Part shown: in pieces, positions 40,676-62,271 of the stretch | Numbering within the stretch: the first letter of the stretch is position 1 | How the letters are laid out: every line of letters starts with the position of its first letter | Assembly (NCBI GenBank): GCA_963675665.1 | Contig: OY776510.1 | Location: forward strand, 1,664,001-1,728,000 | From: Spirochaetia bacterium | GTDB taxonomy: Bacteria; Spirochaetota; Spirochaetia; UBA9216 | Length of the DNA: 64,000 bases | Direction of reading: 5' to 3' | Position numbers and translations under genes: made by a program | Notes under the pieces: model-generated | The model's input: the letters and a program-made list of their open reading frames with translations, nothing else | What the model was told of the DNA's origin: nothing | Database searches by the model: none

Positions 40676-40687
40676 GGCAATTCCTCC

Positions 40688-42467: not shown

Positions 42468-42489
42468 AATAGTAACTCCTTATATGATC

Positions 42490-42502
42490 AATATGCGTAT
42501 TA
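42490..42502. promoter_or_regulatory. Candidate IclR operator half-site
   Basis: AATATGCGTATTA; its exact reverse complement lies at 43932-43944. Confidence 0.5.
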
Positions 42503-42586
42503 TGAAGTATTAATGCGGATAATGCAATACAAAATTAAAAAAAATAGGATATTGTGCCCAATAAAATAATTCTTTATAATGTTGAC

Positions 42587-43944: not shown

Positions 43945-44026
43945 TTTTAAAGGAGGTGAGATCTTTTAGGGTAAGTATTAGTATTCTATTTTGATTAATT
44001 CTAAACTAATTTATTGGAGGATGTTA

Positions 44027-46341: not shown

Positions 46342-47187
46342 ATGAATAAGAAAGGATTCAAGAAAATATTATTATTGATACCATTTTTAATTATTGTAAT
46401 ATATACAATTTTCCCTTTTCTATGGTTTTTTATCGCTTCATTATCAAAGCCCGGGACTATTCCTAAAACATTATCACTACCGGACAGGCTAAGTTTCGAT
46501 GCATATTTTGCAGTGTTATCAAAAAGGTTTCAAATTGAAAACGGTTCAAACATTTGTATAACTTCGAATATTCTGAATTCGATTATTGTAGCGGCGCTAA
46601 CAGTTATTCTGTGCCTTTTGATTTCTATTGGAGCTGCTTATGTATTTTCCAGATATAATAGAAGATATATTAAATTCGGATTCAACTCTCTTCTTGTAAT
46701 AAGAATGACACCAAGTATTTCATTAACTATACCAATATTTTTATTCTTTGCAAAATTAAATATTGTTGATAAATATATTGGCCTTGTTCTAATACATACT
46801 CTTCTCAATATGCCGCTTGCAATTTGGATGATAAAAGGTTTTATTGATGCAATTCCCATCGAACTTGAAGAACAAGCGTATATAGACGGGTCTTCATTTA
46901 TGAATATATTAATTAAAATAATTATCCCGTTAGCCGCTCCGGGAATTGCGGTTTCCGCATGTTTCATCTTTCTTGGAAGTTTTAATGAATATTTATTCTC
47001 GATTGTATTATCAAGAGGTTCTATTGATACACTTCCTTTAGCGATTGCATCTTTTCAGGCGGATCATAAGGTCTTCTATAATGAGATGGCCGCGGCTACT
47101 TTTATTTCCATGATTCCTTTGACATTGTTCTTTTATTTAATGGGCAAGAATATAGTTAAAGGTATCAGCATGGGAGCAGTAAAATAA
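46342..47187 (+). CDS. Carbohydrate ABC permease (MalG-like)
   Basis: NSIIVA, IPIELEEQAYIDG, PLAAPG, TLP and GAVK motifs. Confidence 0.92.
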   Translation: MNKKGFKKILLLIPFLIIVIYTIFPFLWFFIASLSKPGTIPKTLSLPDRLSFDAYFAVLSKRFQIENGSNICITSNILNSIIVAALTVILCLLISIGAAYVFSRYNRRYIKFGFNSLLVIRMTPSISLTIPIFLFFAKLNIVDKYIGLVLIHTLLNMPLAIWMIKGFIDAIPIELEEQAYIDGSSFMNILIKIIIPLAAPGIAVSACFIFLGSFNEYLFSIVLSRGSIDTLPLAIASFQADHKVFYNEMAAATFISMIPLTLFFYLMGKNIVKGISMGAVK

Positions 47188-47224
47188 CTTTATATTCGAA
47201 AATAATTATTTTGGAGGAATAAAT

Positions 47225-48289
47225 ATGAATACGAAGGTGAAGGTCGGAATAGTAGGCCTTGGAAGGATATTTGATTTAAATTGTAAAGGATATTTAGATG
47301 CTGAAAACGCAGAGGTTGTTGCTCTATGCGAAAATAATAAAGAGTCATTAGAAAAACGAGGACTAATTTTCCCTTCGGCAAGAAAATATGAGTCTTTTGA
47401 AGATTTTCTGCAGGAAGATTTAGATATTGTTGAGATATTAACCCCTCATATAGTCCATAAAGATATGGTTATAAAAAGCCTGAAGTCCGGGAAAAATGTT
47501 AGTGTACAGAAACCCATGGCAATGAATGTGAAAGAAGCAGAACTGATGGTAGCGACAGCAAAAGAGGAAAATAAAATATTAAAAGTATTTGAAAATTTCA
47601 TCTTTTATCCCCCACTGGTCAAGGCAAAAGCACTTCTGGATGATGGGTATATTGGGAAACCGATTCATTTCAGAATTCAATTCATTTCCGGATATAGCCA
47701 ATATGCCTGGAATGTACCGGTTCAAACATCTAAATGGAGGACTGAATTATTTAAACAAAAGAAGGCCGGGCCGTTAGTCTTTGATGACGGTCATCATTTA
47801 TTAGCTGTGGCATTATGGCTTTTCGGCGATCCAAATGAAGTATTTTGCACTATAGATTCAACTGAAGAAAAAAGTGGGAAAGTGTATGATGCTCCAGCTA
47901 CTATTGTATGGAAGCATAAAAATCCAAAGGTACATGGTGTTTGTACATTTAGCCGTTCCGAGAAATTTCTGATGAACAGTAAATATTATGCCTGTAATGA
48001 AAAATTTGAAATTATTGGCGAGAAAGGAATTATTATTGTTAACAGGGCAAGTGGGAAGTTTATTAATGAACCGGTTATAAGAATATATAAAGATGGGAAA
48101 ATTGAAGACTTCCATGATATTGAAGATGACTGGGGAAAGAGTTTTTATTATTCAACGAGGAATTTTTTAGATTTTTTCTCCGGTAAGACTAATAAATATG
48201 AATTAACAGGAGAACAAGGTCTGGAGGTTATGAAATTTCTTGATATGGTTCAAGAATCTTCAATTACAAAGAAAGCAGTAGTACAATAG
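47225..48289 (+). CDS. Gfo/Idh/MocA family oxidoreductase
   Basis: GIVGLGRI, ILTPH..H, VQKP, G.IG and GPLVFDDGHH motifs. Confidence 0.9.
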   Translation: MNTKVKVGIVGLGRIFDLNCKGYLDAENAEVVALCENNKESLEKRGLIFPSARKYESFEDFLQEDLDIVEILTPHIVHKDMVIKSLKSGKNVSVQKPMAMNVKEAELMVATAKEENKILKVFENFIFYPPLVKAKALLDDGYIGKPIHFRIQFISGYSQYAWNVPVQTSKWRTELFKQKKAGPLVFDDGHHLLAVALWLFGDPNEVFCTIDSTEEKSGKVYDAPATIVWKHKNPKVHGVCTFSRSEKFLMNSKYYACNEKFEIIGEKGIIIVNRASGKFINEPVIRIYKDGKIEDFHDIEDDWGKSFYYSTRNFLDFFSGKTNKYELTGEQGLEVMKFLDMVQESSITKKAVVQ

Positions 48290-48525
48290 TTATTGTGAAA
48301 TAGAGATTCTCAGACAGTTATTTCTATAACATTTTAAGATATGATTTTTATCAAAAAAGGAGAGATGGTTAATTTTTAATATTGCTACCTGGTTGCTGGA
48401 AGGATATTGAAACAAATATACTCTCATATCTATAAAAAGAAGAAATCTCCTCCGTAAATTAAGTAATTACGGCAAGTAGAAGAAGCTTTGTCAGGTTTTC
48501 AGGTATGGTTATCAGCAGGCAGGAT

Positions 48526-48794
48526 GGCAGCCTCAAATTCTTTTGCACTTTTATTTCTGATCCTCGGGAGGCCGTTACTCTGGCCTCCTTTTATCAATAT
48601 GCATATTCTTAATACAGGTCGATACTCAAGTAGCATTTTAAACCCTATTTGGGTCCTCCAATATGTTTAAGCCTGTTTGCCGTCAACAAGATGGCTGATT
48701 CTTCATCAGGAGAATCCCCGATGTCTTTAGCCAGTCGTCTGATTTTTCTTACTATTTTTTCTAACTCATTTTTTAATATTGGTTCTCCGGATTC
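48526..48794 (-). mobile_element. IS256-family relic (transposase C-terminus and terminal repeat)
   Basis: Minus strand NELEKIVRKIRRLAKDIGDSPDEESAILLTANRLKHIGG resembles the IS256 tail N.LER...EIRRR...G.FPD..S...L...RLRH; GGCAGCCTCAAATTCTTTTGCAC at 48526 resembles an IS256 end. Confidence 0.6.
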
Positions 48795-48818
48795 TTATTC
48801 CTGTGCATTAACGAGTAT

Positions 48819-48860
48819 AAAAAAAGACTGTACAACACTTCGTGTTATCCAGTCTTTTTT
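48819..48860 (-). terminator. Terminator hairpin immediately 3' of the tRNA fragment
   Basis: AAAAAAGACTG...AACAC-TTC-GTGTT...CAGTCTTTTTT; could act in both directions. Confidence 0.7.
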
Positions 48861-48885
48861 GGGGTCCACTAGGACTTGAACCTGG
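48860..48885 (-). other. tRNA 3'-end fragment, candidate att site of an integrative element
   Basis: Minus strand CCAGG-TTCAAGT-CCTAG-TGGACCC-CA: T-arm plus acceptor 3' strand, with no 5' half upstream. Confidence 0.65.
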
Positions 48886-49011
48886 TAGGCATGTTTACAT
48901 TTACTTCGACTTTTATCAGTCCGATTCTTATAACTTAATATAACACAATTAATTACATTTAGCAATGGCTGTATTTTTTTGGAGTATTTTCGGCAATTTT
49001 AACTTGTTTAC

Positions 49012-49071
49012 AATGTCAGAACTGAAGTCAGAGTTGAAGATTTTTCATAAAATGTCAAAGATAATGTCAGG
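49012..49071 (+). repeat. Two pairs of 12-bp-spaced direct repeats (candidate integrase arm sites)
   Basis: AATGTCAGA 49012 and GAAGTCAGA 49024; AATGTCAAA 49051 and AATGTCAGG 49063. Confidence 0.5.
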
Positions 49072-49581
49072 ATTTATGCTGTGTACGTCGTCAAATAATT
49101 CATACCAATCATATCAATTTTTTCAGCTATAGATTTTGCATCATTGAGAATTATGGGTGACGAGATAGTTGGACCTTTCAATTAAATAAAGAGTATCAAG
49201 TGAAGGATTTCAAAAACTGGGTATTTTTGGAAGAATTCTTTAACCGCTTTCCCGATGTGGATTGAAGTAAAACTGAAAAAAGTACAGTGTGTATTATGGA
49301 ATATACGAGAAATTGCTAAAGAGAATTAAAACTATCATAATATTAGTAGATAAGAAAGAAATTATGTTATTATTTCTATGTAAGGCAGAGTTACGGAAGT
49401 TATAATTATCCTTATTTAGTTTTTCTTTAGACTATTGAGATATTGTATTCACAAAAGCATATAAAATCAATACAAATCAAATTTTTTAGTTAAAAATTGC
49501 TTGACATAATGGAATGTGTGTATTTAGATTGTATTAATATAAATAATACTTAACAGGTATGGAATGTGTTGGGAGATTAAT

Positions 49582-51018
49582 GTGAGTAGTGTATTTTTAT
49601 CTATTGATTCAGGCACCAGTTCAATCAGAGTTTCCTTTTTCAGTGAAGAAATAGTTTTAATTGCATCTGAGTCTATCGAAAGATCTGTAAATAGAAAATT
49701 TTCAGCAGAACAAGAATGGGATTATACGAGGAAGTTGATAAGAAGGATTATAGAAAAGAATCCCGGCTATAAGATTAAGGCAATAGCTGTCTCTCAGTTC
49801 TTGTCGTGGGTAATGATTGATAAAGATGGTAACCCTTTATCAGATGTAATTATGTATACAGATCAGAATTTAAAAGAATACACAGAATATTTGTCAAAGA
49901 ATCCACTATTAGACTTTTATAAAAAGACTGGAAGAGATATATCTGCCGATATGCCTATATTTGAGTTGATAAGGATTAAAAATGAAAATAGGAGAATGTA
50001 TGATAAAATTTATAAAATGATTCCTGTTAAAGATTACATAAATTTTAAATTAACAGGAGAAATTTTTTCAGATTATACTTTTTCCTGTTATGGATCGGTT
50101 TTTAATATAATAACAAAGGATTATGATGATGAAATCCTGTTATCATTTAATATTGAAAAAGATAAATTCCCCGAATTAAGAAAGTGCAACAGTATTATAG
50201 GAATGGTAAATGGTAAAGTCGCAAGCGATATTGGCCTTGCTGAAGAAATACCGGTTGCAGCAGGTGGGCCTGACGGGAGCATCGGAATAATCGGAATCGG
50301 TAATACAAAAAAAACAAGTGCCGTAAGCATTATGGGCACAACAGATGTATTTTTTGCAAATAGTGATAGCTGTTTAATAAAAAAAATAGGAAAGGAACTT
50401 GTAAAGAATATTCACCCTCTTGAAGATAATTATCTTTTAGGTGGTCCTATGGGGTTTTCTGGAGGTACTATTAATTGGTTAATTAAATTTCTTAACGGCC
50501 AGTATTCTTTAGAAAATTTAAATGAAATAGCTGAGGATATTCCACTAGGTTCTGGAGGAGTAATGTTTATTCCAGGATTGACTGGTGAGAGGGCACCATT
50601 TTGGAATCCAAAAATTAAAGGAAGTATTATAGGGTTGCAGCCTTATCATAATGCCGGTCATATGTTTAGAGCTATTCTTGAAGCTAATTCGTTTACTACA
50701 TTAAAAATAATCGAAATAATTAGATGTCAGGGAGCAGATGTTAATAATATAATTACAGGTGGTGGTGGGAGCAGGAGCAATTTGTGGATGCAGATAAAAG
50801 CAGATATTACAGGAATTCCTGTTATGGTTTCGTCAGAAAAAGAGACCACTTCTAAAGGAAATGCTATTATAGCGAGTTTAGCTGTAAATAATAGATCAGT
50901 TATTCCGGAACCACAAATTCGACATGTTTTTTATCCGGATAAGGAAGTTCATGAAAAGTATCATGAGTCTTATAATTTATATTTGAAATTTATTAAATTA
51001 ATTAATGAAATTTATTGA
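49582..51018 (+). CDS. FGGY family carbohydrate kinase (xylulokinase-like)
   Basis: IDSGTSSIR, KDYINFKLTG, GGPD, MGTT, PGLTGERAP.W, RAILE and GGGSRS.LW.QIKADI motifs; GGGAG + GTG start. Confidence 0.9.
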   Translation: MSSVFLSIDSGTSSIRVSFFSEEIVLIASESIERSVNRKFSAEQEWDYTRKLIRRIIEKNPGYKIKAIAVSQFLSWVMIDKDGNPLSDVIMYTDQNLKEYTEYLSKNPLLDFYKKTGRDISADMPIFELIRIKNENRRMYDKIYKMIPVKDYINFKLTGEIFSDYTFSCYGSVFNIITKDYDDEILLSFNIEKDKFPELRKCNSIIGMVNGKVASDIGLAEEIPVAAGGPDGSIGIIGIGNTKKTSAVSIMGTTDVFFANSDSCLIKKIGKELVKNIHPLEDNYLLGGPMGFSGGTINWLIKFLNGQYSLENLNEIAEDIPLGSGGVMFIPGLTGERAPFWNPKIKGSIIGLQPYHNAGHMFRAILEANSFTTLKIIEIIRCQGADVNNIITGGGGSRSNLWMQIKADITGIPVMVSSEKETTSKGNAIIASLAVNNRSVIPEPQIRHVFYPDKEVHEKYHESYNLYLKFIKLINEIY

Positions 51019-51064
51019 ATTTTAAATGTAATGGTTAATTTAAATAATATTGGGAGATGAATAA

Positions 51065-51799
51065 TTGGTAGATAGAAAGAGAACAAATACAAATCCATTA
51101 TATCATACTATAAAGGAAGATATAAAAAAGCAGATTCATGAAGAGATTTATAGGCCTGGAGATTTCATCTCTACCGAAGGAGAACTTTGCCGACAATATG
51201 ATGTAAGTAGAGTTACTGTGAGACGTGCTATTGAAGAACTTATAGACGAAGGTGTATTGAATCGGGAATCTGGAAAAACGGCACACGTAGCAGAGAAATC
51301 TATTCCTAGAAGCTTGAATCAACTTGGTGGATTGCATGAAGAATTATCACGAGATGGTATCAAATGTTCATCGTTTATTCTAAATTCTGAAAAGATAAGG
51401 GCAGATTCAATTATGGCTGATAATCTAAAAATAAACGAAGGAGATTGTTTGCATCGGGTAGAACGTCTAAGATATGCTAATGGAACTCCTCTCTCTTATC
51501 AGATCTTATATTTAGTCGATAAATCCTGTCCAGATCTTGACGTTCAGAAATTAGCTACAAAATCTTTATTTGAGACATTGGAAAAAGAGTATAATCTTAA
51601 AATTGAATATGCGACACAGACTATCTCTGCTGCATTAGCAACTTATAAGCAAGCTGCTCTTCTAGAGCTTCCTGAACGAACATGTATGCTTTGCATAAAA
51701 CGTATTACATATCTAAAAGATGGAAATGCGATTGAATATTCTGAAAGTTTTTATGTAGCAAGTAAATATAATTTATCAATGACTTTGCAGCGGAATTAG
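51065..51799 (+). CDS. GntR/HutC family regulator (UTRA domain)
   Basis: PLY..IKE, EL...Y.VSRVTVRRAI, ERLRYANG.P and SLF..LE motifs. Confidence 0.92.
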   Translation: MVDRKRTNTNPLYHTIKEDIKKQIHEEIYRPGDFISTEGELCRQYDVSRVTVRRAIEELIDEGVLNRESGKTAHVAEKSIPRSLNQLGGLHEELSRDGIKCSSFILNSEKIRADSIMADNLKINEGDCLHRVERLRYANGTPLSYQILYLVDKSCPDLDVQKLATKSLFETLEKEYNLKIEYATQTISAALATYKQAALLELPERTCMLCIKRITYLKDGNAIEYSESFYVASKYNLSMTLQRN

Positions 51800-51828
51800 C
51801 AATACATGTAGCCATAATTATAACAATT

Positions 51829-51899
51829 ACAATACAAATGTAATAAAAAGAGTTGACAGGTAAGCAATCCTTATTGTATTGTTATTGTAACATAACAAT
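51829..51899 (+). promoter_or_regulatory. Promoter with ACAATACA/TGTATTGT boxes upstream of the ThDP gene
   Basis: TTGACA at 51853; ACAATACAAATGTAAT at 51829 and TTGTATTGT at about 51874. Confidence 0.5.
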
Positions 51900-51911
51900 G
51901 AGGGTATAATA

Positions 51912-53570
51912 ATGAGTGAACAGTATAAAGGGGGACAGTTAGTAGTTAAAGTCCTCGAAGAAAATAAAACAAAAGTAGTATTCGGTATTCCCGGAGGACA
52001 AACTTTAAGTGTAACGGATGCGATATATGATACAGATATCAGGTTTATAAATACACGACATGAAAATGGTTCAGCCTGTGCGGCAGATGGTTGGGGGCGC
52101 CTGACTGGAGAACCCGGAATATGCCTGGCAACAACCGGATGCGGAGCATCAAACCTGATAACCGGTTTAGGCGGAGCATACAGGGATTCTAGTCCGGTAA
52201 TTGCGTTGGTATTTCAAAATAAACTACCTGACGCAGGAAAAGGTGATGCGCAGGAGAGTAATCATGAAGCTTTATTCTCAAGTATATGTAAGCAGTACAT
52301 CCCGGTAAGATCTGCCGGCAGTGTGGTATGGGCAATGCGTGAAGCCTACAGGGTTGCAAAAACCGGCAGGCCCGGACCCGTTGTCGTTGATTTGTATAGA
52401 GATGTTGTTGAAGATCAGACAGCAGGATACGAGTATGTGGACCCAAAAAGTTACTGTATACAAAGCAGGGTTAAGCCAGATGACGAAGAAGTAAAATCAG
52501 CAGTTAAAGCAATAAAAGACAGTAGCAAAATCTGTGTTTGGTGCGGTAATGGCGTTAAACTTTCAGATGCATCGGAAGAAGTAATGAAACTGTCTAAAAT
52601 AACCAATGCGCCGGTAGTTACAACCTATAACGGGATTGCATGCATCCCCGGAGAATTTGAAAATCTGATAGGTCCGAGGAGCCGGCATGGTAGTGTCGTC
52701 ACCAAGGCCGCAATAGAGGATGCAGATTGTATAGTATTGGTAGGCTCGACACTGACGGCGATAAGCACAAACCGTTGGAGTATAAAAGCTAAGAATATAA
52801 TCCAGATAGATATAATCCCTGAGAACATAGGCAGACATTATCCTGTATCGGTAGGTGTGGTCGGAGATGCGAAGAAAGCATTAACCGCGATAACTGACGG
52901 TTTGGTAAGTGCCGGATTCATTGGTGAAGAAGCTTTCCTTCAGGAACTGAAAAGTAAAAAGTCAGAATGGGAAAAGAAAACAGTATCCGGGGCGATAGCG
53001 GATAAGACAGCGGAGCCGGTGGCGCCGATAGCTTTTGCGAAAGAATTTGAGAAGGTACTATCTGAGAACAGTGTTTTAGCGGTAGACGCGGGAAATCCCG
53101 GGGCATGGACGCATATAATAAAATTTCCGAAAGGAACTTCCTATATGAAGCCGGTAAATTTTGGGAACATGGGTTTTGCTCTTCCGGCTGCCTTGGGGGC
53201 AAAGGCTGCTGCACCGGAAAAAGAAGTAATAGCGTTGTTGGGTGACGGGTCGCTTGGAATGACTCTGACGGAACTGGAAACAGTGGCCCGGGAGAAACTA
53301 AATATCATAATACTTGTATTGAATGATGATGCGTATGGAAATATCAGGCAGGAAGAGCTTTTTAAGACCGGAAAGGAACGGTACATAGGAGTTGATTTCA
53401 CTCGGGTTGATTATGTGGATGTAGCAAAGGCGCTTGGATGTGATGGAGCTGTAGTACGAAAAGCAAGCGACTTATCTTCCGCATTTGCGCAAGCCCGTGC
53501 GTCGGAGAAGCCCTTTATGATTGAAGTAAAGTTCGATGGTAGCTATACTATTTGGCCTGAAGCTTTCTAG
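51912..53570 (+). CDS. ThDP-dependent enzyme (acetolactate synthase/2-hydroxyacyl-CoA lyase superfamily)
   Basis: VFGIPGG, RHE (catalytic Glu), GRPGPV, G.MGF.LPAALG and GDGS...N..YG motifs; TTGCG replaces the usual TSGPG. Confidence 0.88.
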   Translation: MSEQYKGGQLVVKVLEENKTKVVFGIPGGQTLSVTDAIYDTDIRFINTRHENGSACAADGWGRLTGEPGICLATTGCGASNLITGLGGAYRDSSPVIALVFQNKLPDAGKGDAQESNHEALFSSICKQYIPVRSAGSVVWAMREAYRVAKTGRPGPVVVDLYRDVVEDQTAGYEYVDPKSYCIQSRVKPDDEEVKSAVKAIKDSSKICVWCGNGVKLSDASEEVMKLSKITNAPVVTTYNGIACIPGEFENLIGPRSRHGSVVTKAAIEDADCIVLVGSTLTAISTNRWSIKAKNIIQIDIIPENIGRHYPVSVGVVGDAKKALTAITDGLVSAGFIGEEAFLQELKSKKSEWEKKTVSGAIADKTAEPVAPIAFAKEFEKVLSENSVLAVDAGNPGAWTHIIKFPKGTSYMKPVNFGNMGFALPAALGAKAAAPEKEVIALLGDGSLGMTLTELETVAREKLNIIILVLNDDAYGNIRQEELFKTGKERYIGVDFTRVDYVDVAKALGCDGAVVRKASDLSSAFAQARASEKPFMIEVKFDGSYTIWPEAF

Positions 53571-53748
53571 AGAAGAGTGTTTTGAAAGAACAAAATAGAA
53601 GAATAAAACTTGTAATCACATATGATGCTATCAGAACTATGGTGATGGTTAAGTGCTCTGCTAATATGTGGTTCCCTGAAATGAAGTGGCTTGATGCAAA
53701 ACTTATATTACAGTCGGCAATACTATAAAAAAATATTGGAGGATTTTT

Positions 53749-54654
53749 TTGGAAAGGAAATCAAAACAGACTACAGTTGAGGAAGCTGTTTCAATAATTG
53801 AGTCTGGTTCAAAATTGGCAATTGGCGGATCTCTTATACGTAAAGCTCCTATGGCACTTGTAAGAGAAGTTGTTAAACAAAAAAAACGAGATTTAACTTT
53901 GTATAGTTGGTCGGCTGGGATGGACTTTGATCTATTAATTGGTGCAGGTTGTGTAAAGGAAGCTTGGTCTTCATACTGCGGCTTGTTTCAATTCGGTATG
54001 GCTATGAATTTCCGGCGCGAAGTTGAGAGCGAGAAGGTGCGGTTTGTTGATCTGAGCGAAACATGCGCTAAAGATAAATTCAGGGCTGCCGCGTTTGGTA
54101 ACACATACTGTATTTCAAAAGTCCCGTTACATACAAGCCTTATGGAAAATGAAGAATTTCAGAATATTGTAACTTGTCCATTCACCGGCGAAGAATACGT
54201 AGCGATGGAAGCATACCATCCTGACGTAGCCATTCTGCATGCCCATAGAGCGGATAAATACGGAAATGTTCAACTTGACCCGATACGGATGATGGATAAT
54301 GAATGTGATATTATGATAGCAAAATCTGCGAAAAAGGTGATTGTTTCTGTTGAAGAAATAGTGGATGAGTCAATAATAATAGAGAATCCTACATGGACCG
54401 TACTTCCCAAGTTTTTTGTTGATCATGTAGTAGAGATACCTTTTGGTGCACATCCGAATTCATGCGATACATTATATGATTTTGATATGGAACACGGAAG
54501 ACTTTATCGTGATTACAGTGTTTCTGTAGATCAATTCCAAAAATATTTAGAGGAATATATTTTTTCATGTCTTAATCATTCTGATTATATAGAGAAATGC
54601 GGCGGTATAGATTCTTTTAGAAAATTGAGTAGATCAACGGTGGAGGATAATTGA
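53749..54654 (+). CDS. Family I CoA-transferase subunit A (GctA-like)
   Basis: IGG....R.PMA..RE, DLLIGAG, CPFTGE, PDVAILHA..AD..GN and P.GAHP motifs. Confidence 0.88.
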   Translation: MERKSKQTTVEEAVSIIESGSKLAIGGSLIRKAPMALVREVVKQKKRDLTLYSWSAGMDFDLLIGAGCVKEAWSSYCGLFQFGMAMNFRREVESEKVRFVDLSETCAKDKFRAAAFGNTYCISKVPLHTSLMENEEFQNIVTCPFTGEEYVAMEAYHPDVAILHAHRADKYGNVQLDPIRMMDNECDIMIAKSAKKVIVSVEEIVDESIIIENPTWTVLPKFFVDHVVEIPFGAHPNSCDTLYDFDMEHGRLYRDYSVSVDQFQKYLEEYIFSCLNHSDYIEKCGGIDSFRKLSRSTVEDN

Positions 54655-55475
54655 TGGAGAGAGAATATACTTTAGCGGAGCTTTTGGCTGTGGAGGCCTC
54701 CAGATATGTTCAGGATGATGAGATGAATTTCGTTGGGATCGGAACAGGAGGAGAAGCTTGGGTTAGAGCTGTAGGTATGCCGACGGTTGGAGTATGCCTT
54801 GCTCAGCATAAACATGCACCGAATGCTACATTCATGATTGGCCCCGTATTGGATCCTCTTTTAGACGATATATACGTCCCTGATTCTAATTGGGAATATG
54901 ATTTAATTCATTGGCCTTGTAGAAGCCAGATACCTCTCGAAGATGCGTTGGGTATTTTCAGGCTTGGGAAAATTGGTTTGGCGTTCGCGTCAGCTGCTCA
55001 GGTAGATAAATTTGGGAATCTGAATATTGCTCGTATCGGAAGTAAAGAGAATATGAAAGTCAGATTGCCGGGATGTTTGGCTCAGACTGATCACGGAGCT
55101 TATGCTAAAAGAATTTGTGTCACAGTTAGGCACAATAAAAGAACACTAGTTGAGCACGTTGATTTCATTTCATGCGCAGGAAATGAAAATAGAAAAGGTT
55201 TGCCTGGAGGTGGTCCTGCTCTAGTGTTTACAGACAAGGCTATCATGGATTTTTCACCTGAAAATGGAAGAATGAGGTTAAAAAGTATTCATCCCGGAAT
55301 TGAAATAGAAGATGTGATTGAGAATACAGGTTTTGATTTAATTGTTCCGGAGAAGGTTGAAGAAACTCTGGCTCCCACAAAAGAAGATCTTGACCTAATC
55401 AGAAATGTTATTGATCCGAAGAAAAAGTTCTTGGAAGCACGTATAACACATGAAGCAGCAACACTTAATTGGTAG
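54654..55475 (+). CDS. Family I CoA-transferase subunit B (GctB-like)
   Basis: FVGIG, AQVDKFGNLN, VRLPG, GGP..V.TD and HPG.....V.ENTGF motifs. Confidence 0.88.
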   Translation: MEREYTLAELLAVEASRYVQDDEMNFVGIGTGGEAWVRAVGMPTVGVCLAQHKHAPNATFMIGPVLDPLLDDIYVPDSNWEYDLIHWPCRSQIPLEDALGIFRLGKIGLAFASAAQVDKFGNLNIARIGSKENMKVRLPGCLAQTDHGAYAKRICVTVRHNKRTLVEHVDFISCAGNENRKGLPGGGPALVFTDKAIMDFSPENGRMRLKSIHPGIEIEDVIENTGFDLIVPEKVEETLAPTKEDLDLIRNVIDPKKKFLEARITHEAATLNW

Positions 55476-55485
55476 GGGGGAAAAA

Positions 55486-56688
55486 ATGGGGGGAGCACTT
55501 TCCGGGATTAGAGTGTTAGATATTTCTAGATACATAGCTGGGCCATACTGCAGTATGCTGTTAGGCGATATGGGTGCTGATGTGATCAAAGTGGAAAAGA
55601 AGGGCTGTGGTGAGGATTCCAGGAGCATGATTCCATTTGCTGGAAAAGAAGGTGAAGAAAAGGTTAGTTTATACTTTACTCAATACAATAAAAATAAGAG
55701 AAGTGTAACATTAGATTTTAGAAATCCAGAAGGCATTGAATTACTTAAGGAAATGATTTCCAAAAGTGATGTTTTAGTTGAAAATTTTCGTCCAGGAACG
55801 TTAGGTAAAATGGGGCTGACAAAAGAAGTTCTTGAAAAAATCAATCCAAGTCTAATTACCGTATCTATTTCAGGATTCGGACAAGATGGTCCATATCGTG
55901 ATCGTGCTGCTTTTGACTGCATTGGACAGGTAATGGGCGGACTGATGAGTGTTACCGGCGAGCAAGACGGTGAGCCGTTATTAGTCGGCAGTTGGATAGC
56001 TGATTTTGCGACTGGTATTTATGCCGCCTTGGGTGCAGTTTCAGCGCTTTATAAAAGAAAAGAAACAGGTATAGGACAACAGATTGATGTATCGTTGCTC
56101 GAAAGTGTTATTTCTTTACTGGCAACGGCAATTCCTAATTATGTTGAAACAGGATTAAAACAGGAGCGTAGAGGGAACAGGGACAATGTTACCGGTCCGG
56201 CGAATCTATTTAAAACCAAGGACAGTATGATATATATGCATGCCGGCACAGATCCTCTATTTACGAAATTAGCCGAGTTAATGGGAAGAAAAGAATTAAA
56301 TGTTGATCCGAAATTCCACACTGCAAACGACAGGATGAATAATATAGAAGAAATTGAGGAAATTGTTCAAGACTGGATGTCAAAATATTCCACTGATGAA
56401 TTGGAAAGGATGCTTGTAGGTGTTGGGATTCCATGTTCTCCGATGGCTGATGTCGAATCTGTTATCAATAATCCACAGGTTAAACATAGAAAAGCTGTTC
56501 TATATAAAGAATATCCGGGGGTAGGAAAAATATCTCTGCCTGGATCTGTAATTAAAATGTCAAAAAATGAAAATGAAGAAATAAAATTACCGCCAAAATT
56601 AGGGCAGCATAATTTTGAAGTTTACGAAGAAGTTCTGGGGCTTTCAAATCAGGAAGTTAATAAATTAAAAGAGCAAGGAATAATATAG
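55486..56688 (+). CDS. Family III CoA-transferase (CaiB/BaiF/Frc-like)
   Basis: LSGIRVLD..RYIAGP, GADVIKVE, N.NKRS..LD, ENFRPG, ISGFG..GP, IAD (catalytic Asp) and P.LGQH motifs. Confidence 0.92.
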   Translation: MGGALSGIRVLDISRYIAGPYCSMLLGDMGADVIKVEKKGCGEDSRSMIPFAGKEGEEKVSLYFTQYNKNKRSVTLDFRNPEGIELLKEMISKSDVLVENFRPGTLGKMGLTKEVLEKINPSLITVSISGFGQDGPYRDRAAFDCIGQVMGGLMSVTGEQDGEPLLVGSWIADFATGIYAALGAVSALYKRKETGIGQQIDVSLLESVISLLATAIPNYVETGLKQERRGNRDNVTGPANLFKTKDSMIYMHAGTDPLFTKLAELMGRKELNVDPKFHTANDRMNNIEEIEEIVQDWMSKYSTDELERMLVGVGIPCSPMADVESVINNPQVKHRKAVLYKEYPGVGKISLPGSVIKMSKNENEEIKLPPKLGQHNFEVYEEVLGLSNQEVNKLKEQGII

Positions 56689-56704
56689 TTTTAAGGAGAA
56701 ATTT

Positions 56705-57190
56705 ATGCTCGTTAAAGTAAGACAAGTAATAGATCGAATAATTGGAGCAATATCCGGAATATTATTTATAATTGCTGTCTGTGCCACACTAATTGGCATA
56801 TTAGACAGAACTTTCGGTCTGAATTTGAAAACCGTCTGGGCGGAAGAAGTTACAAGATATTCAATTATTTGGGCTATGTTTTTAATAGTAGGTATTTGTC
56901 TTAGAAGAGGATATCAAACTGCATTTACATTATTTCTTGATAAAATGAATGTTAAATTAAGGGCTTTATTTCAAATAATAATATATATACTTATTACTTT
57001 ATTTTGTCTGCTTTTATTCTATTATGGTATCAAATCCTCGTTTCAAAATATAAATCAACATTCGCCTGTTTTGCAAATCAGTATGACTTATCCATTCTTA
57101 TCAATTCCTGTTGGTGCGGCTTTATGCTTGTTTGAAACGGTATCGGGTATTTATGTAACAATTAGCGGACAACTAAGAGAAGGAATATAG
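56705..57190 (+). CDS. dctQ: TRAP transporter small permease
   Basis: 4 TM helices; WAEEVTRY and SPVLQI motifs. Confidence 0.88.
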   Translation: MLVKVRQVIDRIIGAISGILFIIAVCATLIGILDRTFGLNLKTVWAEEVTRYSIIWAMFLIVGICLRRGYQTAFTLFLDKMNVKLRALFQIIIYILITLFCLLLFYYGIKSSFQNINQHSPVLQISMTYPFLSIPVGAALCLFETVSGIYVTISGQLREGI

Positions 57191-57192
57191 AG

Positions 57193-58485
57193 ATGATAGT
57201 ATCGCTCGGTATTTTTTTAATCCTACTTATATTAATTTTTATTGGGGTACCTATAGCATTCAGTATTGGGCTGGCGAGTCTTGCTACAATATATCTTTTC
57301 GATTTAGGTATACCGCTTACTCTTCTTCCTGCTAAAACATTTTCAGGAATGGATTCGTTTTCTCTCATGGCAATACCATTTTTTATTTTGGCCGGAGAAA
57401 TTATGAATAAAGCCGGTATTACAAGGCGGATTATTGATCTTGCTGATGCATGTGTTGGCTTCTTAAAAGGCGGCCTGAGTTATGTCAATGTCGTCTCCGC
57501 CATGCTTATGGCAGGAGTCTCCGGATCAGGAACAGCAGATGCCGCAGCTCTGGGTGTTGTTATGATTCCAAATATGGAAGAAAAAGGGTATAGTAAGCAA
57601 TATGCAGTTGCTTTAACGTCTTGTGCAAACACTATAGGTCCTATTATTCCGCCAAGTACATTATTAATTCTCTATGGTTATTATACAAATACTTCTGTAG
57701 CTAAATTGTTTATAGGTGGTATCTTCCCTGGGATTATAATGGGTCTTTCATTGATGATTGTTGCTCAGATTATTTGTAGAAAAAAGGGCTACAGGCAGGT
57801 TACTTCCAAGTTTTCAAAATCACATTTTAAATCGGCATTAATACGAGGATGGGTGGCATTATTAGCACCTACATTCATTTTGGTTGCTATTATACTAGGA
57901 TGGGCAACACCTTCTGAAGCAGGTGTTTTAGTGTGTGTTTTTGCACTTATTCTTGGTCTTTTCTATAAAACCATAAGATCTTTAAACGATATCAAAGAAA
58001 TTGTCATATCTGCGGCGAGATCAACATGTACAATTTTTACATTGTTAGCATTTTCCGGAATATTTGCAAATATTCTGGTCAGGGCGCATTTTCAGGGTAT
58101 GATTGTTAGTTTTCTACAAGGAGTAGGCGGTTCTCCTACAAGTATGTTGATTATGATTTCAATATTCATTTTTATTCTTGGTATGTTTGTTGATGTTACC
58201 CCAATGATTATCATGTTTTCTGCAGCATTTGCAGGAGTTGCTGTTTTAAATGGAATAAACATCGTACATTTCGGCCTTGTTTTTGTATTAATCTGTATGA
58301 TAGGTGCGGTCACCCCGCCAGTAGGAGGTTTGTTGTTTGTTACAACATCAATTGGAAAAGTTTCAATGCAGAAAGTCACGCCAGTATTAATTCCTTTTGT
58401 GGCTGTTCTTTTTGGTGTTGTAGTTCTATTAATATTTTTCCCGTCTTTAGTGACTTATTTACCTAATTTAATAATGGGTAATTAA
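57193..58485 (+). CDS. dctM: TRAP transporter large permease
   Basis: AIPFFILAG, SGSGTAD, IIPPS, TPSEA and TPPVG motifs. Confidence 0.92.
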   Translation: MIVSLGIFLILLILIFIGVPIAFSIGLASLATIYLFDLGIPLTLLPAKTFSGMDSFSLMAIPFFILAGEIMNKAGITRRIIDLADACVGFLKGGLSYVNVVSAMLMAGVSGSGTADAAALGVVMIPNMEEKGYSKQYAVALTSCANTIGPIIPPSTLLILYGYYTNTSVAKLFIGGIFPGIIMGLSLMIVAQIICRKKGYRQVTSKFSKSHFKSALIRGWVALLAPTFILVAIILGWATPSEAGVLVCVFALILGLFYKTIRSLNDIKEIVISAARSTCTIFTLLAFSGIFANILVRAHFQGMIVSFLQGVGGSPTSMLIMISIFIFILGMFVDVTPMIIMFSAAFAGVAVLNGINIVHFGLVFVLICMIGAVTPPVGGLLFVTTSIGKVSMQKVTPVLIPFVAVLFGVVVLLIFFPSLVTYLPNLIMGN

Positions 58486-58511
58486 GATAAATATTATTTA
58501 TGGAGGATTTT

Positions 58512-59543
58512 ATGAAAAGAAATGGATTATTAGCGGTATTATTGATTTTATCACTTGTGATGTTTTTCAGTTGTGCAAAAGAAAAAACAGAAGCTGTTGC
58601 CGCAAGTAATGAAGAGTCTAAAGGGTTTGAGAAAATGACAATACGTTATGGTAGTATCTACAATGAAGATACTATTTATGGAAAATCTTTAAATAAGATG
58701 AAAGAAATTATAGAGAACGGTTCTGACGGAAATATAAAAGTTGATATTTTCCATGGGGGAACTTTGGGTTCCGAACAGGAACATGCACAAGCGCAAAATG
58801 CTGGCTCGATTGAGATGCTTTTTTCCGGAACAGCAGGTGTTGGATTGTATGTTCCTGCAACGGCAATATTCGAGACCTGGTACTCATTTGAGGATATAGA
58901 GCAGTTAGGAGAAGCTGTTAATATTCTATGGGATGTATTAGATAAAGAAATGCGGGATAATAATTTTAAATTGCTTGGGGCATACTATGATGGTCCAAGG
59001 AATATATTATCTAACGTAAAGATAACGAATCTTGACGAGTTGCAGAATGTTAAACTCAGATCTCCAGGTGCAAATGTATATGTAAATAGCATCTCTGCTT
59101 TGGGTGCACAGGCAATAGCCCTACCGTTTGGAGATGTCTATACAGCATTGCAGACTAATGCAATAGATGCAATGGAAGGTACTATTGATTCAATATATCA
59201 GCAAAAATTTTATGAACAGGGTAAGTATTTAATCAAAGATTCTCATGTATTTCAGGCATTATTTATAACTTATAATCTTAAAGCATGGAATGAACTGTCT
59301 GAATCTGCAAAGCAATTGATACAAAATGCAGTAAAAGAGAGCATGGACTATCAGATGTCCTTATATAATGACGTTATGGATGAAGAAATTGCAGCAATGA
59401 AGGAGAATGGTATTGAATTCGTTGAAATTACGGATAGAACTAAATGGGTACAAGCGGTAAAGCCGGCAACAGAAGCATATGTAAGTAATTACGGCGATGT
59501 CGGTAAAGCCATATACAAGGTAGTTGAATCATTTAGTAAATAA
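58512..59543 (+). CDS. dctP: TRAP transporter substrate-binding lipoprotein
   Basis: Lipobox FFS-C; GPR, KLRSP and DVYTALQT.AIDA.E motifs (conserved carboxylate-binding Arg). Confidence 0.9.
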   Translation: MKRNGLLAVLLILSLVMFFSCAKEKTEAVAASNEESKGFEKMTIRYGSIYNEDTIYGKSLNKMKEIIENGSDGNIKVDIFHGGTLGSEQEHAQAQNAGSIEMLFSGTAGVGLYVPATAIFETWYSFEDIEQLGEAVNILWDVLDKEMRDNNFKLLGAYYDGPRNILSNVKITNLDELQNVKLRSPGANVYVNSISALGAQAIALPFGDVYTALQTNAIDAMEGTIDSIYQQKFYEQGKYLIKDSHVFQALFITYNLKAWNELSESAKQLIQNAVKESMDYQMSLYNDVMDEEIAAMKENGIEFVEITDRTKWVQAVKPATEAYVSNYGDVGKAIYKVVESFSK

Positions 59544-59711: not shown

Positions 59712-59748
59712 TGGCGGATTTCTAATCATGGGAATCCGCCACTTTTTT
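59712..59748 (+). terminator. Intrinsic terminator
   Basis: TGGCGGATTTC-N7-GGGAATCCGCCA followed by CTTTTTT. Confidence 0.7.
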
Positions 59749-59804
59749 ATTGCTCATCTATTTACAATGTTAAGTACTTTTCTCCGTAAGCGGTAATTCT
59801 TACC

Positions 59805-61358
59805 CTATGCCTTAATCAGCCCAGGAGTCAGGTTGAACGGAAGCAGTGCTTCATAATCAGCCGGTGTTTTGCAATTTGGAAGCTGTCTGAAAACGTAGTA
59901 GAAATAATCATAGACCGAGAGGTTCTGCATTTTAGCTGATTCAACAAGGCTGTACAAAATTGCTGAAGATTCGGCGCCGTGTTCTGTATCAGAAAACAAC
60001 CAATTCTTCCTGCCAATCACAAAAGGCCGGATTGCGTTTTCGGCAATATTGTTGGACGGCGTAAGTAGCGGGTCTTCCAAATACAAGTTTAACTGCTTCC
60101 AATTATCCAGCGTATAAGCAATAGCTTTTCCGAAGGCAAGTGTCGGAGGTGTTTCAGCCGCATATTTTGTCAGTAGTTCAAATAACGATTTCAAAATCGG
60201 AGAAGACCTGTTCGCTCGCTTTTTATGAAACCCCTTTTTAGAAAAATCAGCTCTCAAATCTTCAAGCTCAAAAAGTTTCTTAATCAATTCGAGTATCTGT
60301 TTTACATCCGGAGATTTAGACAGTTCCCAATACTTGTAGAAATATCTGCGGGCATGCGCCCAACACAAAACATGCCGAATGGACTTATTCCCTTCATCGC
60401 TTAGTTTTTTCAATGCAGTATGATAAGCCTCATAATCATCAGTCTGCAGCCAGCCGGAATATTCTTGAAGAAAGTCATACGGAACTTTATGAGAGCGGCT
60501 TGTTTCATACTGGAATACGACCGATTTCTTATCAGGCTTACCCCCGAGAAATACCCACATCCAGGATTTATCCTGTGCTTTACGGCCTTTTTCTTTCAAA
60601 ACCTGTACCCGAGTCTCATCTGCGTTTATTACAGGCCCGTTTTTAATATTATCTTTAAGCAGTTCATATAGCGGCTTGCATCTTTCAGCGCATTTAATTG
60701 CCAATGTGCTCAGTGTTGCACGTGGAATATCCGCACCTATCGCATTCAACCTCTTACTCTGTCGATAAAACGGCAGCGCATATTCAAACTTCTCATTTAT
60801 AATCCATGCAAGCAGGCTTTCATCGGCAATACTTCCGGAAATGAGGTGTTTAATCCCTTCTGCTGTCTGTACTCCGGATGAATCATCAGTTGTTCCTTCA
60901 CAATTTCGGCAGACATATTTTTTCTTTATCTCACGTCTGACGACTACTTTCGCAGGAACGATGCAGAGTCGTTCAGATACATCTTCACCTATACAAACCT
61001 TCTCGGTACCACAGGCACAGGTTTTATCTTCTTCATCGATATCGTATTCAACAATCTCGCGAGGCAGGTCTTCAGAAAGCGCTTTTCTTCCCGAGTTCTT
61101 TCGAACTGTTTTTGTGTGGGCTTTTACTTCAAGGGTTTCTGATTCTATTTCATCCTGCTGCTCAAATGCGGAATCTTCTGCTTCGTTGAAAAGGGACGCC
61201 TGCTTCTTATCTTCACTGGTAAGTTTCTCAGATTTTGTTCCGAAGTGAAGAGTCTGCAGGAGGTGTACCAGTTCTTTCAATTCGGTAATCTGATTATCCT
61301 GATTTTGGACTGTTTGTTTGAGTTGAGCAATTTCGTTAAGCAAGGCTTCAGTACTCAC
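59805..61358 (-). CDS. tnpC: IS66 transposase TnpC
   Basis: FG.KSEK, zinc finger, LPFYRQ, ADET, LQTD.Y..Y, CWAHARR and NN.AENAIR...IGRKNWLF motifs. Confidence 0.95.
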   Translation of the reverse strand: MSTEALLNEIAQLKQTVQNQDNQITELKELVHLLQTLHFGTKSEKLTSEDKKQASLFNEAEDSAFEQQDEIESETLEVKAHTKTVRKNSGRKALSEDLPREIVEYDIDEEDKTCACGTEKVCIGEDVSERLCIVPAKVVVRREIKKKYVCRNCEGTTDDSSGVQTAEGIKHLISGSIADESLLAWIINEKFEYALPFYRQSKRLNAIGADIPRATLSTLAIKCAERCKPLYELLKDNIKNGPVINADETRVQVLKEKGRKAQDKSWMWVFLGGKPDKKSVVFQYETSRSHKVPYDFLQEYSGWLQTDDYEAYHTALKKLSDEGNKSIRHVLCWAHARRYFYKYWELSKSPDVKQILELIKKLFELEDLRADFSKKGFHKKRANRSSPILKSLFELLTKYAAETPPTLAFGKAIAYTLDNWKQLNLYLEDPLLTPSNNIAENAIRPFVIGRKNWLFSDTEHGAESSAILYSLVESAKMQNLSVYDYFYYVFRQLPNCKTPADYEALLPFNLTPGLIKA

Positions 61359-61396
61359 ATAAGAATTTTACCACGGTTAAATTCGAGTGTGAAGCC

Positions 61397-61741
61397 CTAA
61401 ACGCGGGAATAATTTAATTGCTTATGCGCTTTAAAGAAATCTATTCCATCAAGCAGCATCTTCAACTCTTCGAACTTTATCTCCCTCGCGTCTTCTTCCG
61501 TTTCCGGCCAGGGGAACTTATTCTTTTCAAGTCTTTTCTGCCAAAGACAGAATCCGTTCCGATCCCAGTAAACGATTTTAAGCAGCTTTCTTTTGCCGTT
61601 GCAGAATAGAAACAGACTTTTTGAGAACGGGTCGTTCTGCATTATATTCTGAATCTGCAGGCTCAGACCGTTCACACCTTTTCGTAAATCAGTTTTCCCG
61701 GGTCTGACGAAGTAACGGTATTCTGAGTAATCGATAATCAT
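61397..61741 (-). CDS. tnpB: IS66 accessory protein TnpB
   Basis: DLRKG.NGL, LFLFCN, KIVYWD..GFCLWQKRLE and F.WP motifs. Confidence 0.95.
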   Translation of the reverse strand: MIIDYSEYRYFVRPGKTDLRKGVNGLSLQIQNIMQNDPFSKSLFLFCNGKRKLLKIVYWDRNGFCLWQKRLEKNKFPWPETEEDAREIKFEELKMLLDGIDFFKAHKQLNYSRV

Positions 61742-62037
61742 TCGAGCTCCCCGATTACTTTAAGAACTGATTTCAGCCCGGCTTCATCAAATCCGGCAGT
61801 TATTGATATTAAGAACTTTTTGGTTTTTATAACTATTGGGGCGGCTGAGAAGATTCCATTTGGTTTTATTTCAACAACTGAAGAACTTCCGGGTGCTTCC
61901 TGATTACCAATAATTTTCCTGTTTTTATAAAACGTGTTTGGATGAATCCCGATCTCTTTACAGAACTCTGGAATCGTCTTACCGCTTTGCTGTTGTTGCT
62001 CAATGACTTCTTCCCAATTATTTATTACCTTTCGCAT
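61738..62037 (-). CDS. tnpA: IS66 accessory protein TnpA
   Basis: W...I..Q..SG.TI..FC...GI...TFY HTH pattern. Confidence 0.9.
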   Translation of the reverse strand: MRKVINNWEEVIEQQQQSGKTIPEFCKEIGIHPNTFYKNRKIIGNQEAPGSSSVVEIKPNGIFSAAPIVIKTKKFLISITAGFDEAGLKSVLKVIGELE

Positions 62038-62213
62038 TTATTTCCTCCTGGTTAATAATTCCGGAGGATAATACATTTTTATATTTTAGCAAGAAGGTAA
62101 GAATTACCGCTTACTCCTTATTTAATATTTAACAACTTTTCTTAAAACCCAGTTGTACATACTTAGCAATAAGTGAAAATCTCTGGTCTTTGGAAAAAAT
62201 AATAAATATTAAT

Positions 62214-62271
62214 TTGACATATAAGGTATTATCATTATGATATTATAATCACAATACAAAAATGTATTGTG
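62214..62271 (+). promoter_or_regulatory. Sigma70 promoter and palindromic operator
   Basis: TTGACA 62214, TATGAT 62236; perfect inverted repeat CACAATACA-N4-TGTATTGTG at 62250-62271. Confidence 0.65.

Follow-up and report, generated by a model that had tools for sequence, protein, structure and literature searches.

We analysed a 64,000-nucleotide stretch of the genome of a Spirochaetia bacterium (GenBank assembly GCA_963675665.1, contig OY776510.1, positions 1,664,001 to 1,728,000 of the forward strand; hereafter the window), focusing on a nine-gene cluster that encodes a thiamine diphosphate (ThDP)-dependent enzyme together with proteins of coenzyme A (CoA)-transferase fold, a sugar kinase and a carboxylate importer. 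Genes were called from a listing of open reading frames (ORFs) combined with Pfam and NCBIfam scans of the window proteins. The cluster spans positions 49564/49582–59543, and all nine ORFs lie on the + strand, are full length and cover their Pfam profiles completely, in agreement with the gene content and co-orientation given in the initial annotation. In order, they encode an FGGY-family carbohydrate kinase (49582–51018; FGGY_N 134 bits, FGGY_C 122 bits), a GntR/HutC-type regulator with a UTRA effector domain (51065–51799; UTRA 126 bits, GntR 55 bits), a 552-residue ThDP-dependent enzyme with all three TPP domains (51912–53570), a GctA-like α subunit with the class I CoA-transferase fold (53749–54654; CoA_trans 90 bits), a GctB-like β subunit (54651–55475), a family III (CaiB/Frc/YfdE/SUGCT-like) CoA-transferase (55450–56688; CoA_transf_3 401 bits), and the DctQ (56705–57190), DctM (57193–58485) and DctP (58500–59543) components of a tripartite ATP-independent periplasmic (TRAP) transporter, identified by the PF04290/PF06808/PF03480 set. 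Pfam and NCBIfam scans found no acetolactate synthase (ALS) small subunit, dehydratase or aldolase within 49.5–59.5 kb, as had been noted initially. No dehydrogenase gene is present in the window cluster or in the near-identical architectures of two related loci, L022 and L042.

We sampled related loci from species-representative genomes (21 loci) and from metagenomes (28 loci), and labelled their genes by tblastn with Pfam-identified reference proteins (E-value of 1e-12 or better, at least 55% query coverage). A full-length ThDP gene was present in 37 loci, counting that of the window, and these formed 23 groups at 90% identity; one (L053) was left out for having almost no flanks, which left 22 informative groups. 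The initial annotation treated the genes as a unit, and they are conserved as such across these dereplicated groups: a family III transferase occurs in 18 of the 22, a UTRA-GntR regulator in 16, an FGGY kinase in 15, a GctAB-like pair of the types that lack the catalytic Glu (see below) in 15, a MaoC-like double-hotdog protein in 10, a TRAP transporter in 6, a tripartite tricarboxylate transporter (TTT) in 4 and a sugar-type ATP-binding cassette (ABC) transporter in 4. At least one of a 4-hydroxybutyrate-dehydrogenase-like iron-dependent alcohol dehydrogenase (Fe-ADH), AbfD and AbfT is found in 7. The kinase adjoins the ThDP gene even in L062–L064, three loci of a clade whose ThDP proteins are only ~40% identical, and the architecture of the window recurs in L022, L025 and L042 at 53–84% protein identity.

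The ThDP proteins of the cluster family are 63–76% identical to that of the window (53% for L022), whereas the FGGY proteins are 33–50% identical to one another, which suggests a constant ThDP step joined to variable sugar parts. The named sources of the cluster family are all Clostridia. Loci L014 and L021 belong to the cultured strains Anaerotruncus massiliensis AT3 and Mediterraneibacter agrestimuris DSM 111629. The grouping of these genes is not due to chance. They make up an intact, probably catabolic cluster that is horizontally mobile, is flanked by insertion sequences (ISs) and belongs to a conserved family of gut-type Clostridia.

The MaoC-like protein is a conserved protein of ~340 residues encoded at L021:6890–7900, L007:11844–12881 and 14 further places in related loci, often directly 5' of the ThDP gene. 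It occurs as two paralogous types that are ~36% identical, has no Pfam match above threshold and gives weak MaoC/FAS-dehydratase (double hotdog) signals. A search by sequence for solved relatives of one representative (P0121) returned none.

The ThDP protein reaches no NCBIfam equivalog cut-off. Its best NCBIfam match is the acetohydroxyacid synthase (AHAS) large subunit (TIGR00118; 371.1 bits against a cut-off of 538.35), and it scores about 264–283 bits on the Xsc, pyruvate oxidase (POX) and AlsS models. On the oxalyl-CoA decarboxylase (OXC) model TIGR03254 it scores 158.6 bits against a cut-off of 739.4 and is outscored by three other ThDP genes of the same genome; the 2-hydroxyacyl-CoA lyase (HACL) model NF058623 lies outside its best 25 NCBIfam families, the lowest of which scores 260 bits. 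Comparison with solved structures gave the same order, with BbmA (PDB 8x3x) at 224 bits, AHAS at ~205, POX at ~185, glyoxylate carboligase (GCL) at ~169 and HACL/OXC at 137–149. A quick maximum-likelihood tree was also built, in which the paralogues encoded by this genome and four E. coli proteins (Oxc, Gcl, IlvI and PoxB) served as references. In this tree, in which deep nodes are weak (SH-aLRT 71), the ThDP proteins of the cluster family form their own long-branch clade (SH-aLRT 99), and it is a different paralogue of the genome that groups with E. coli Oxc.

The alignment of the ThDP protein retains the HEN catalytic-Glu motif and the GDGS...N(D/N) ThDP motif. In OXC and HACL, an active-site Tyr-Glu pair and a C-terminal lid have functional roles. 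The window protein has DAQE opposite DAFQE of AHAS and GDYEE of Oxc, and its C-terminus ends 8 residues past the last strand, without the tails of Oxc, IlvI, Gcl and PoxB. We rejected membership of HACL/OXC, the family favoured by the initial annotation, on the low TIGR03254 and structure scores, the separate clade and the missing Tyr-Glu pair and tail. A biosynthetic AHAS was rejected on the sub-threshold TIGR00118 score and the lack of an ACT/small-subunit gene in 49.5–59.5 kb. Judged by sequence, the protein is placed in neither HACL/OXC nor AHAS but in a deep clade of its own. This placement makes it less likely that the enzyme is an HACL, yet leaves room for HACL-like working; a CoA-ester substrate would require convergence, since the protein is closer to AHAS, POX, GCL and Xsc than to HACL/OXC.

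Among the 120 best-scoring matches, homologues of the ThDP protein are 64–97% identical to it, and their named sources are Clostridia metagenome-assembled genomes; some are recorded on 500 to 1000 or more contigs. No ortholog was detected at an E-value of 1e-150 or better in 400 other sampled genomes of the same class, and no homologue at 1e-60 or better in a plasmid collection. The family is rare and patchy among species. Longer fused forms of the protein were not found in the search, which is weak evidence, and the ESM Atlas returned generic 'acetolactate synthase / TPP-binding' clusters alone. Elsewhere in the genome, the paralogue at L070:9465–11117 (G000:C1:498465–500117) has the genome's top TIGR03254 score, a sub-threshold 258.5 bits, and is the one that clusters, at weak support, with E. 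coli Oxc. Its neighbours encode a transaldolase-like protein, an MFS sugar transporter, an esterase and a zinc-dependent alcohol dehydrogenase, with no CoA-transferase nearby, so that it offers no comparison for the cluster.

Both subunits of the GctAB-like pair have the CoA_trans fold (PF01144; 89.6 bits for A, 43.1 bits for B). Against solved relatives, the A subunit scores 120 bits with GctA (1poi), 99 with the AibA type (5mzw) and 75 with the IpdA type (6co6); the B subunit scores 93 bits with GctB, 39–50 with IpdB and 43 with the AibB type. In the HMMER alignment to 1poi_B, the Gly of TFMIGPVLDP in the window B subunit aligns to the sole Glu of VESG in GctB, the catalytic residue. Among 25 B subunits from related loci aligned with MAFFT, 20 lack the catalytic Glu and 5 carry ESG. 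In the published account of IpdAB, Glu54β of glutaconate CoA-transferase (GCT) is essential and its equivalent in IpdAB is Gly57β; there, IpdAB is described as having no CoA-transferase activity and is assigned as a COCHEA-CoA hydrolase (PMC5380842). The initial annotation counted two CoA-transferase classes; the replacement of Glu by Gly leaves one bona fide class in the window. A stand-alone LUD-domain (LutC-like) protein is encoded in three related loci (L009:19722–20357, L011:9167–9919 and L043:13507–14139), where it comes after a window-type Glu-less GctAB-like pair, directly or past one transferase gene; the window cluster has none.

The family III protein is, on its sequence features, predicted to be the sole bona fide CoA-transferase of the cluster. 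Its CoA_transf_3 match spans profile positions 1–366, and the Asp that aligns to D169 of E. coli Frc, the catalytic Asp of that enzyme, is kept in all 6 cluster family III proteins aligned. Identity is 35% with E. coli YfdE and 31% with Frc; among solved structures, SUGCT (9br7) scores best, at 278 bits. Equivalog levels are not reached for Frc (TIGR03253; 276.8 bits against 504.2), YfdE (NF008511; 261.9 against 522) or the succinate-glutarate model (291.4 against 750).

The kinase ORF is open from 49564, but translation more likely starts, as initially proposed, at the GTG codon at 49582, which follows a GGGAG. Its N-terminus reads LSIDSGTS. The protein falls below every equivalog cut-off (XylB, 252.8 against 380.25 bits; GntK, 186.5 against 648.55 bits), and its best solved relatives are XylB (2itm, 146 bits) and a gluconate kinase (3gbt, 145 bits). 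The GntR protein is 55–59% identical to the regulators of L009, L010 and L014.

The Q, M and P components of the TRAP transporter are encoded together, and the TIGR00786 score, 362.6 bits, exceeds its cut-off of 268. DctQ matches YiaM, and DctM matches YiaN, far under the respective cut-offs (30 against 260 and 236 against 800 bits). DctP has a lipoprotein-like N-terminus and retains the KLR(V/S)P arginine region common to sugar-acid and sialic-acid binders, in which the Arg serves carboxylate binding. Its best solved relatives all score ~105–111 bits, the top three being 7BBR (111 bits), 4PC9 and a sialic-acid binder. A published account describes 7BBR as a binder of 2-keto-3-deoxygluconate, 4X8R of glucuronate and 4N8Y of galacturonate (PMC11668362); the latter two match DctP slightly below the top relatives. 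The presence of sugar-acid binders among these relatives agrees with the sugar-acid import proposed in the initial annotation.

The control region of the ThDP operon (51829–51898, + strand) comprises an operator-like motif ACAATACAAATGTA at 51829–51842, a TTGACA promoter-like site at 51853–51882 and, just 5' of the ThDP gene, a perfect 7+7 palindrome, TTGTTAT-N6-ATAACAA, at 51879–51898. The pattern ACAATACAAA(N0-2)TGTA, which was built from the same two sites that it finds, occurs twice in the window against 0 expected. These are its only sites in the whole 5.15-Mb genome, one 5' of the ThDP gene (51829) and the other (62251) 5' of a fragment of a sugar solute-binding protein (SBP) gene, where a related operator had been noted in the initial annotation. 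The second operator-like motif accompanies a promoter-like site, TTGACA-16-TATGAT (62214–62266, + strand). An intrinsic-terminator-like hairpin of 13 pairs followed by a T-run (59712–59741, + strand) closes the operon.

Taken together, these features are best explained, at roughly even odds, by a redox-neutral module that depends on CoA thioesters and splits a hydroxy- or keto-carboxylate of sugar-acid type after its import by the TRAP system. With no redox enzyme in the window cluster or its closest relatives, the pathway must be limited to import, transfer of CoA, a C-C reaction on a keto acid or thioester, and a phosphorylation step. No gene is linked more tightly to the ThDP gene than that of a CoA-transferase; next come two kinds of protein from thioester enolate chemistry, the MaoC-like hydratases and the Glu-less GctAB-like pairs. 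The tight linkage to the family III transferase fits a thioester-based C-C cleavage. The FGGY kinase implies a sugar-like product or intermediate, and the lactonase-, aldonate-dehydrogenase- and isomerase-like genes of L012, L044 and L064 point to sugar-derived acids.

We infer the substrate class, the order of steps and all of the chemistry in the following scheme. The acid would be imported by DctPQM and converted to its thioester by the family III transferase, with CoA recycled from a short acyl-CoA product. The GctAB-like pair, to which a non-transferase role is ascribed because the catalytic Glu is lost, would then act on the thioester as a lyase, hydrolase, decarboxylase or isomerase of the IpdAB/AibAB type. 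The ThDP enzyme would carry out the key C-C cleavage, giving a C1–C2 acyl unit and a shorter sugar-like carbonyl compound for phosphorylation by the FGGY kinase. The HutC-type GntR protein would regulate the operon, with a phosphorylated intermediate as its probable effector.

For the ThDP step itself, we tentatively favour a convergently evolved, 2-hydroxyacyl-CoA-lyase-like cleavage of the thioester (HACL-like formyl-CoA chemistry), although this assignment is doubtful. As a second and slightly less probable choice, the enzyme would act in the reverse-AHAS sense and split a sugar acid that is free and of the 2-hydroxy-3-oxo or 2,3-dioxo kind. The remaining probability falls to plain decarboxylation of a 2-oxo acid or, in the relatives rich in 4-hydroxybutyrate genes, a succinate semialdehyde route. 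A broader proposal we consider speculative and rather improbable as a whole: a previously unrecognised deep ThDP clade would have evolved C-C cleavage of sugar-acid-derived substrates (acyl-CoA thioesters or 2-hydroxy-3-oxo/2,3-dioxo acids) apart from HACL/OXC and, working with Glu-less GctAB pseudo-CoA-transferases (lyases or decarboxylases) and a family III transferase, would form a new ATP-sparing, redox-neutral fermentation route of gut Clostridia. Sugar acids from the diet or the host, perhaps products of ascorbate breakdown, would thereby be channelled into sugar phosphates and, among relatives, into butyrate.

Several observations weigh against a thioester-cleaving sugar-acid module. 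The ThDP protein scores nearer to AHAS, POX, GCL and Xsc than to HACL/OXC, and the FGGY proteins of the different clusters share just 33–50% identity. Four of the 22 groups (L012, L044, L062 and L064) have no family III transferase within 10 kb; L012 has no gene of CoA-transferase fold at all, and its only CoA-type enzyme is a protein of the 3-hydroxyacyl-CoA dehydrogenase (3HCDH) family. The kinase is missing from 7 of the 22 groups, which carry 4-hydroxybutyrate-to-crotonyl-CoA genes and extra true transferases instead, suggesting that at least some relatives handle non-sugar (di- or tri-)carboxylates.

Three other accounts of the pathway were considered. According to the one that survives best, though it is itself unlikely, the ThDP enzyme runs in the reverse-AHAS sense and splits a free or FGGY-phosphorylated keto sugar acid (2-hydroxy-3-oxo or 2,3-dioxo, for example a 3-keto-aldonate or the ascorbate-derived 2,3-diketogulonate) into glyoxylate or oxalate and a shorter sugar trapped by the kinase, with the YfdE/Frc-like transferase handling the C2 acid. 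The ThDP protein belongs to the AHAS-type superfamily, AHAS itself produces 2-hydroxy-3-oxo acids, and the cluster transferase has the noted identity of 35% to YfdE, an acetyl-CoA:oxalate transferase of E. coli. In L012 and L044, moreover, the ThDP and FGGY genes occur without a transferase gene and beside genes for 3HCDH-family, xylose-isomerase-like TIM-barrel and PTE/MBL lactonase-like proteins. 2,3-Diketogulonate degrades non-enzymatically to erythrulose and oxalate. However, the window cluster has no dehydrogenase to form the keto group, the YiaM/YiaN matches of DctQ and DctM are weak, and the MaoC-like hydratases and IpdAB-like pairs, enzymes of longer thioesters, are left unexplained.

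A dicarboxylate or hydroaromatic route to butyrate is less probable again. Here a substrate such as 2-hydroxyglutaryl-CoA, citramalyl-CoA, 2-oxoglutarate or a ring-opened derivative of quinate or shikimate would give succinate semialdehyde or acetoacetate in the ThDP step, the IpdAB-like pair would cleave or decarboxylate a thioester, and the product would pass through 4-hydroxybutyrate to crotonyl-CoA. The Fe-ADH, AbfD or AbfT genes of 7 of the 22 groups lie within the operon in L015, L018 and L020, and L009 and L010 are flanked by thiolase, crotonase, Hbd and Bcd genes. TTT transporters in 4 groups, shikimate-dehydrogenase-like and IolE-like genes in L008, L012 and L024, and the fact that SUGCT, the best solved relative of the transferase, is a dicarboxylate enzyme are also in keeping with such a route. 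The window cluster lacks these accessory genes, yet has an FGGY kinase, and the solved structures closest to its TRAP SBP bind sugar acids and sialic acid.

The specific model of the initial annotation, in which a 2-C-branched sugar acid is activated by two working classes of CoA-transferase and split by an HACL-type enzyme into formyl-CoA and a ketose captured by the kinase, we regard as improbable. It draws on the linkage of the ThDP gene to the family III transferase (18 of 22 groups) and to FGGY (15 of 22), the lack of a redox enzyme in the cluster and the kinship of the transferase to YfdE and Frc. Nevertheless, the GctB-like subunit without its catalytic Glu leaves one transferase class, the ThDP protein lies outside HACL/OXC, and nothing points specifically to branched substrates; the lactonases and aldonate-type dehydrogenases of relatives are typical of ordinary aldonates.

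Comparison with known systems places the thioester-cleaving module among several partial precedents. As in oxc-frc-yfdE of E. coli/Oxalobacter and in bacterial HACL systems, a ThDP enzyme is genetically coupled to a family III transferase, and as in oxc-frc-yfdE, CoA could be recycled without ATP. The window ThDP protein differs in lying outside the OXC/HACL clade, in lacking the Oxc C-terminal tail and in having DAQE for GDYEE, and the cluster also encodes a TRAP importer, an FGGY kinase, the Glu-less GctAB-like pair and a UTRA-GntR regulator. The pair shares with IpdAB/AibAB the two-subunit GctAB fold and, with IpdAB (PMC5380842), the Glu-to-Gly change in the β subunit. By score it nevertheless stands nearer to true GctAB (120 and 93 bits) than to the AibAB type (99 and 43) or IpdAB (75 and 39–50), and its context is sugar-acid and CoA metabolism in Clostridia rather than steroid or isovalerate pathways.

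AHAS, catabolic ALS, POX, GCL and BbmA are the best sequence matches of the window ThDP protein and share its domain order and its HEN and GDGS motifs. Unlike the AHAS-type enzymes, it scores under the family cut-offs (371 against 538 bits), has no small-subunit gene, forms a separate long-branch clade, carries DAQE for DAFQE and has a short C-terminus. The E. coli yiaK-S/ula system (TRAP YiaMNO, FGGY kinase LyxK) likewise joins a TRAP importer to an FGGY kinase, and relatives of the window cluster carry MBL-/PTE-type lactonase-like, 3HCDH-family and xylose-isomerase-like TIM-barrel genes. The window cluster differs from it in having ThDP and CoA-thioester enzymes in place of an UlaD/SgbH-type decarboxylase and epimerases, and in its far sub-threshold YiaM and YiaN matches. 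In the literature searched, whose coverage leaves out most subscription journals, we found no paper on BbmA, the best PDB match of the ThDP protein, and, in line with the initial annotation, no described pathway with this gene combination.

Set against the known theme of a ThDP enzyme with a family III transferase, the cluster stands out by its distinct ThDP clade and by IpdAB-like pseudo-transferases in a sugar-acid context. No core enzyme of the cluster can be assigned to a characterised family at the equivalog level, although some members occur on many contigs, and the automatic names 'acetolactate synthase' and 'CoA-transferase subunit A/B' are misleading for these proteins. Should thioesters or keto sugar acids prove to be what the ThDP enzyme cleaves, HACL/OXC-like chemistry would have a second, independent origin, relevant to enzymology and to synthetic one-carbon pathways. 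The Glu-less GctAB-like pairs would enlarge the small group of non-transferase enzymes with the CoA-transferase fold, and the 4-hydroxybutyrate/crotonyl-CoA genes of relatives suggest that butyrate formation has a so far overlooked source.

To the left of the cluster, 1.27 kb (48290–49563) contains no ORF of at least 80 residues and carries an IS remnant (49000–49055; blastn, 89% identity over 56 nt to L007 DNA beside a Mutator-family transposase fragment). To the right lies an IS66-family element with intact TnpA-, TnpB- and TnpC-like ORFs (59786–62114, − strand; Pfam/NCBIfam), bounded by imperfect 30-nt inverted repeats (59786–59815 and 62085–62114, 83% complementary). We looked for an 8-bp target duplication around it and found none; the flanking 8 bases differ, so the element may have mediated a rearrangement rather than a simple insertion. 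G+C content is 0.40–0.45 at 52–56 kb and 0.29–0.36 around it, which, with IS elements on both sides, suggests that the cluster sits on an IS-rich, probably acquired island. These same features, along with the visibly rearranged paralogous cluster described below, could suggest a decaying or accidental assemblage without joint function in this genome, but this is very improbable given nine full-length ORFs with full profile coverage and the recurrence of the architecture in L022, L025 and L042.

The order of IS66 followed by a sugar SBP stands as initially annotated, but the SBP (Peripla_BP_4; 62294–63043, + strand) is truncated to 249 residues and joins directly onto a second copy of the ThDP gene (63036 onward), a junction not mentioned previously. 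The copy matches the first over 1,527 bp with 1 mismatch, and its protein is identical at 320 of 321 residues. It passes the window end and continues, in the same reading frame, into a truncated gene for a family III transferase, forming an 809-residue chimeric ORF; 3' of this lie genes for a GctAB-like pair, a sugar-type ABC transporter, another family III transferase, a MaoC-like double-hotdog protein and transposases. Together these make up a second, rearranged cluster of the same family (window 62294–64000, + strand, continuing into L007:1294–12881, or G000:C1:1726294–1737881) that looks like the result of recent illegitimate recombination or gene conversion.

Upstream of the cluster, positions 43991–48289 encode a sugar ABC transporter (SBP_bac_1 and two permeases) and a GFO/IDH/MocA oxidoreductase, which are not conserved beside the ThDP gene in other loci. 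A string resembling a tRNA near 48860 received no ARAGORN call, and ribosomal RNA was rejected as an explanation of high G+C at 38–42 kb, Rfam being empty there and across 36–64 kb. The block of higher G+C (38157–43363, ~0.52) encodes, on the − strand, a divergent 627-residue ThDP protein (best NCBIfam match IolD, 133 bits against a cut-off of 715), an RpiB/LacAB-like protein and a split transketolase, followed by an IclR regulator on the + strand. Three ThDP genes of the AHAS superfamily, both cluster copies included, and a transketolase thus lie inside 26 kb.

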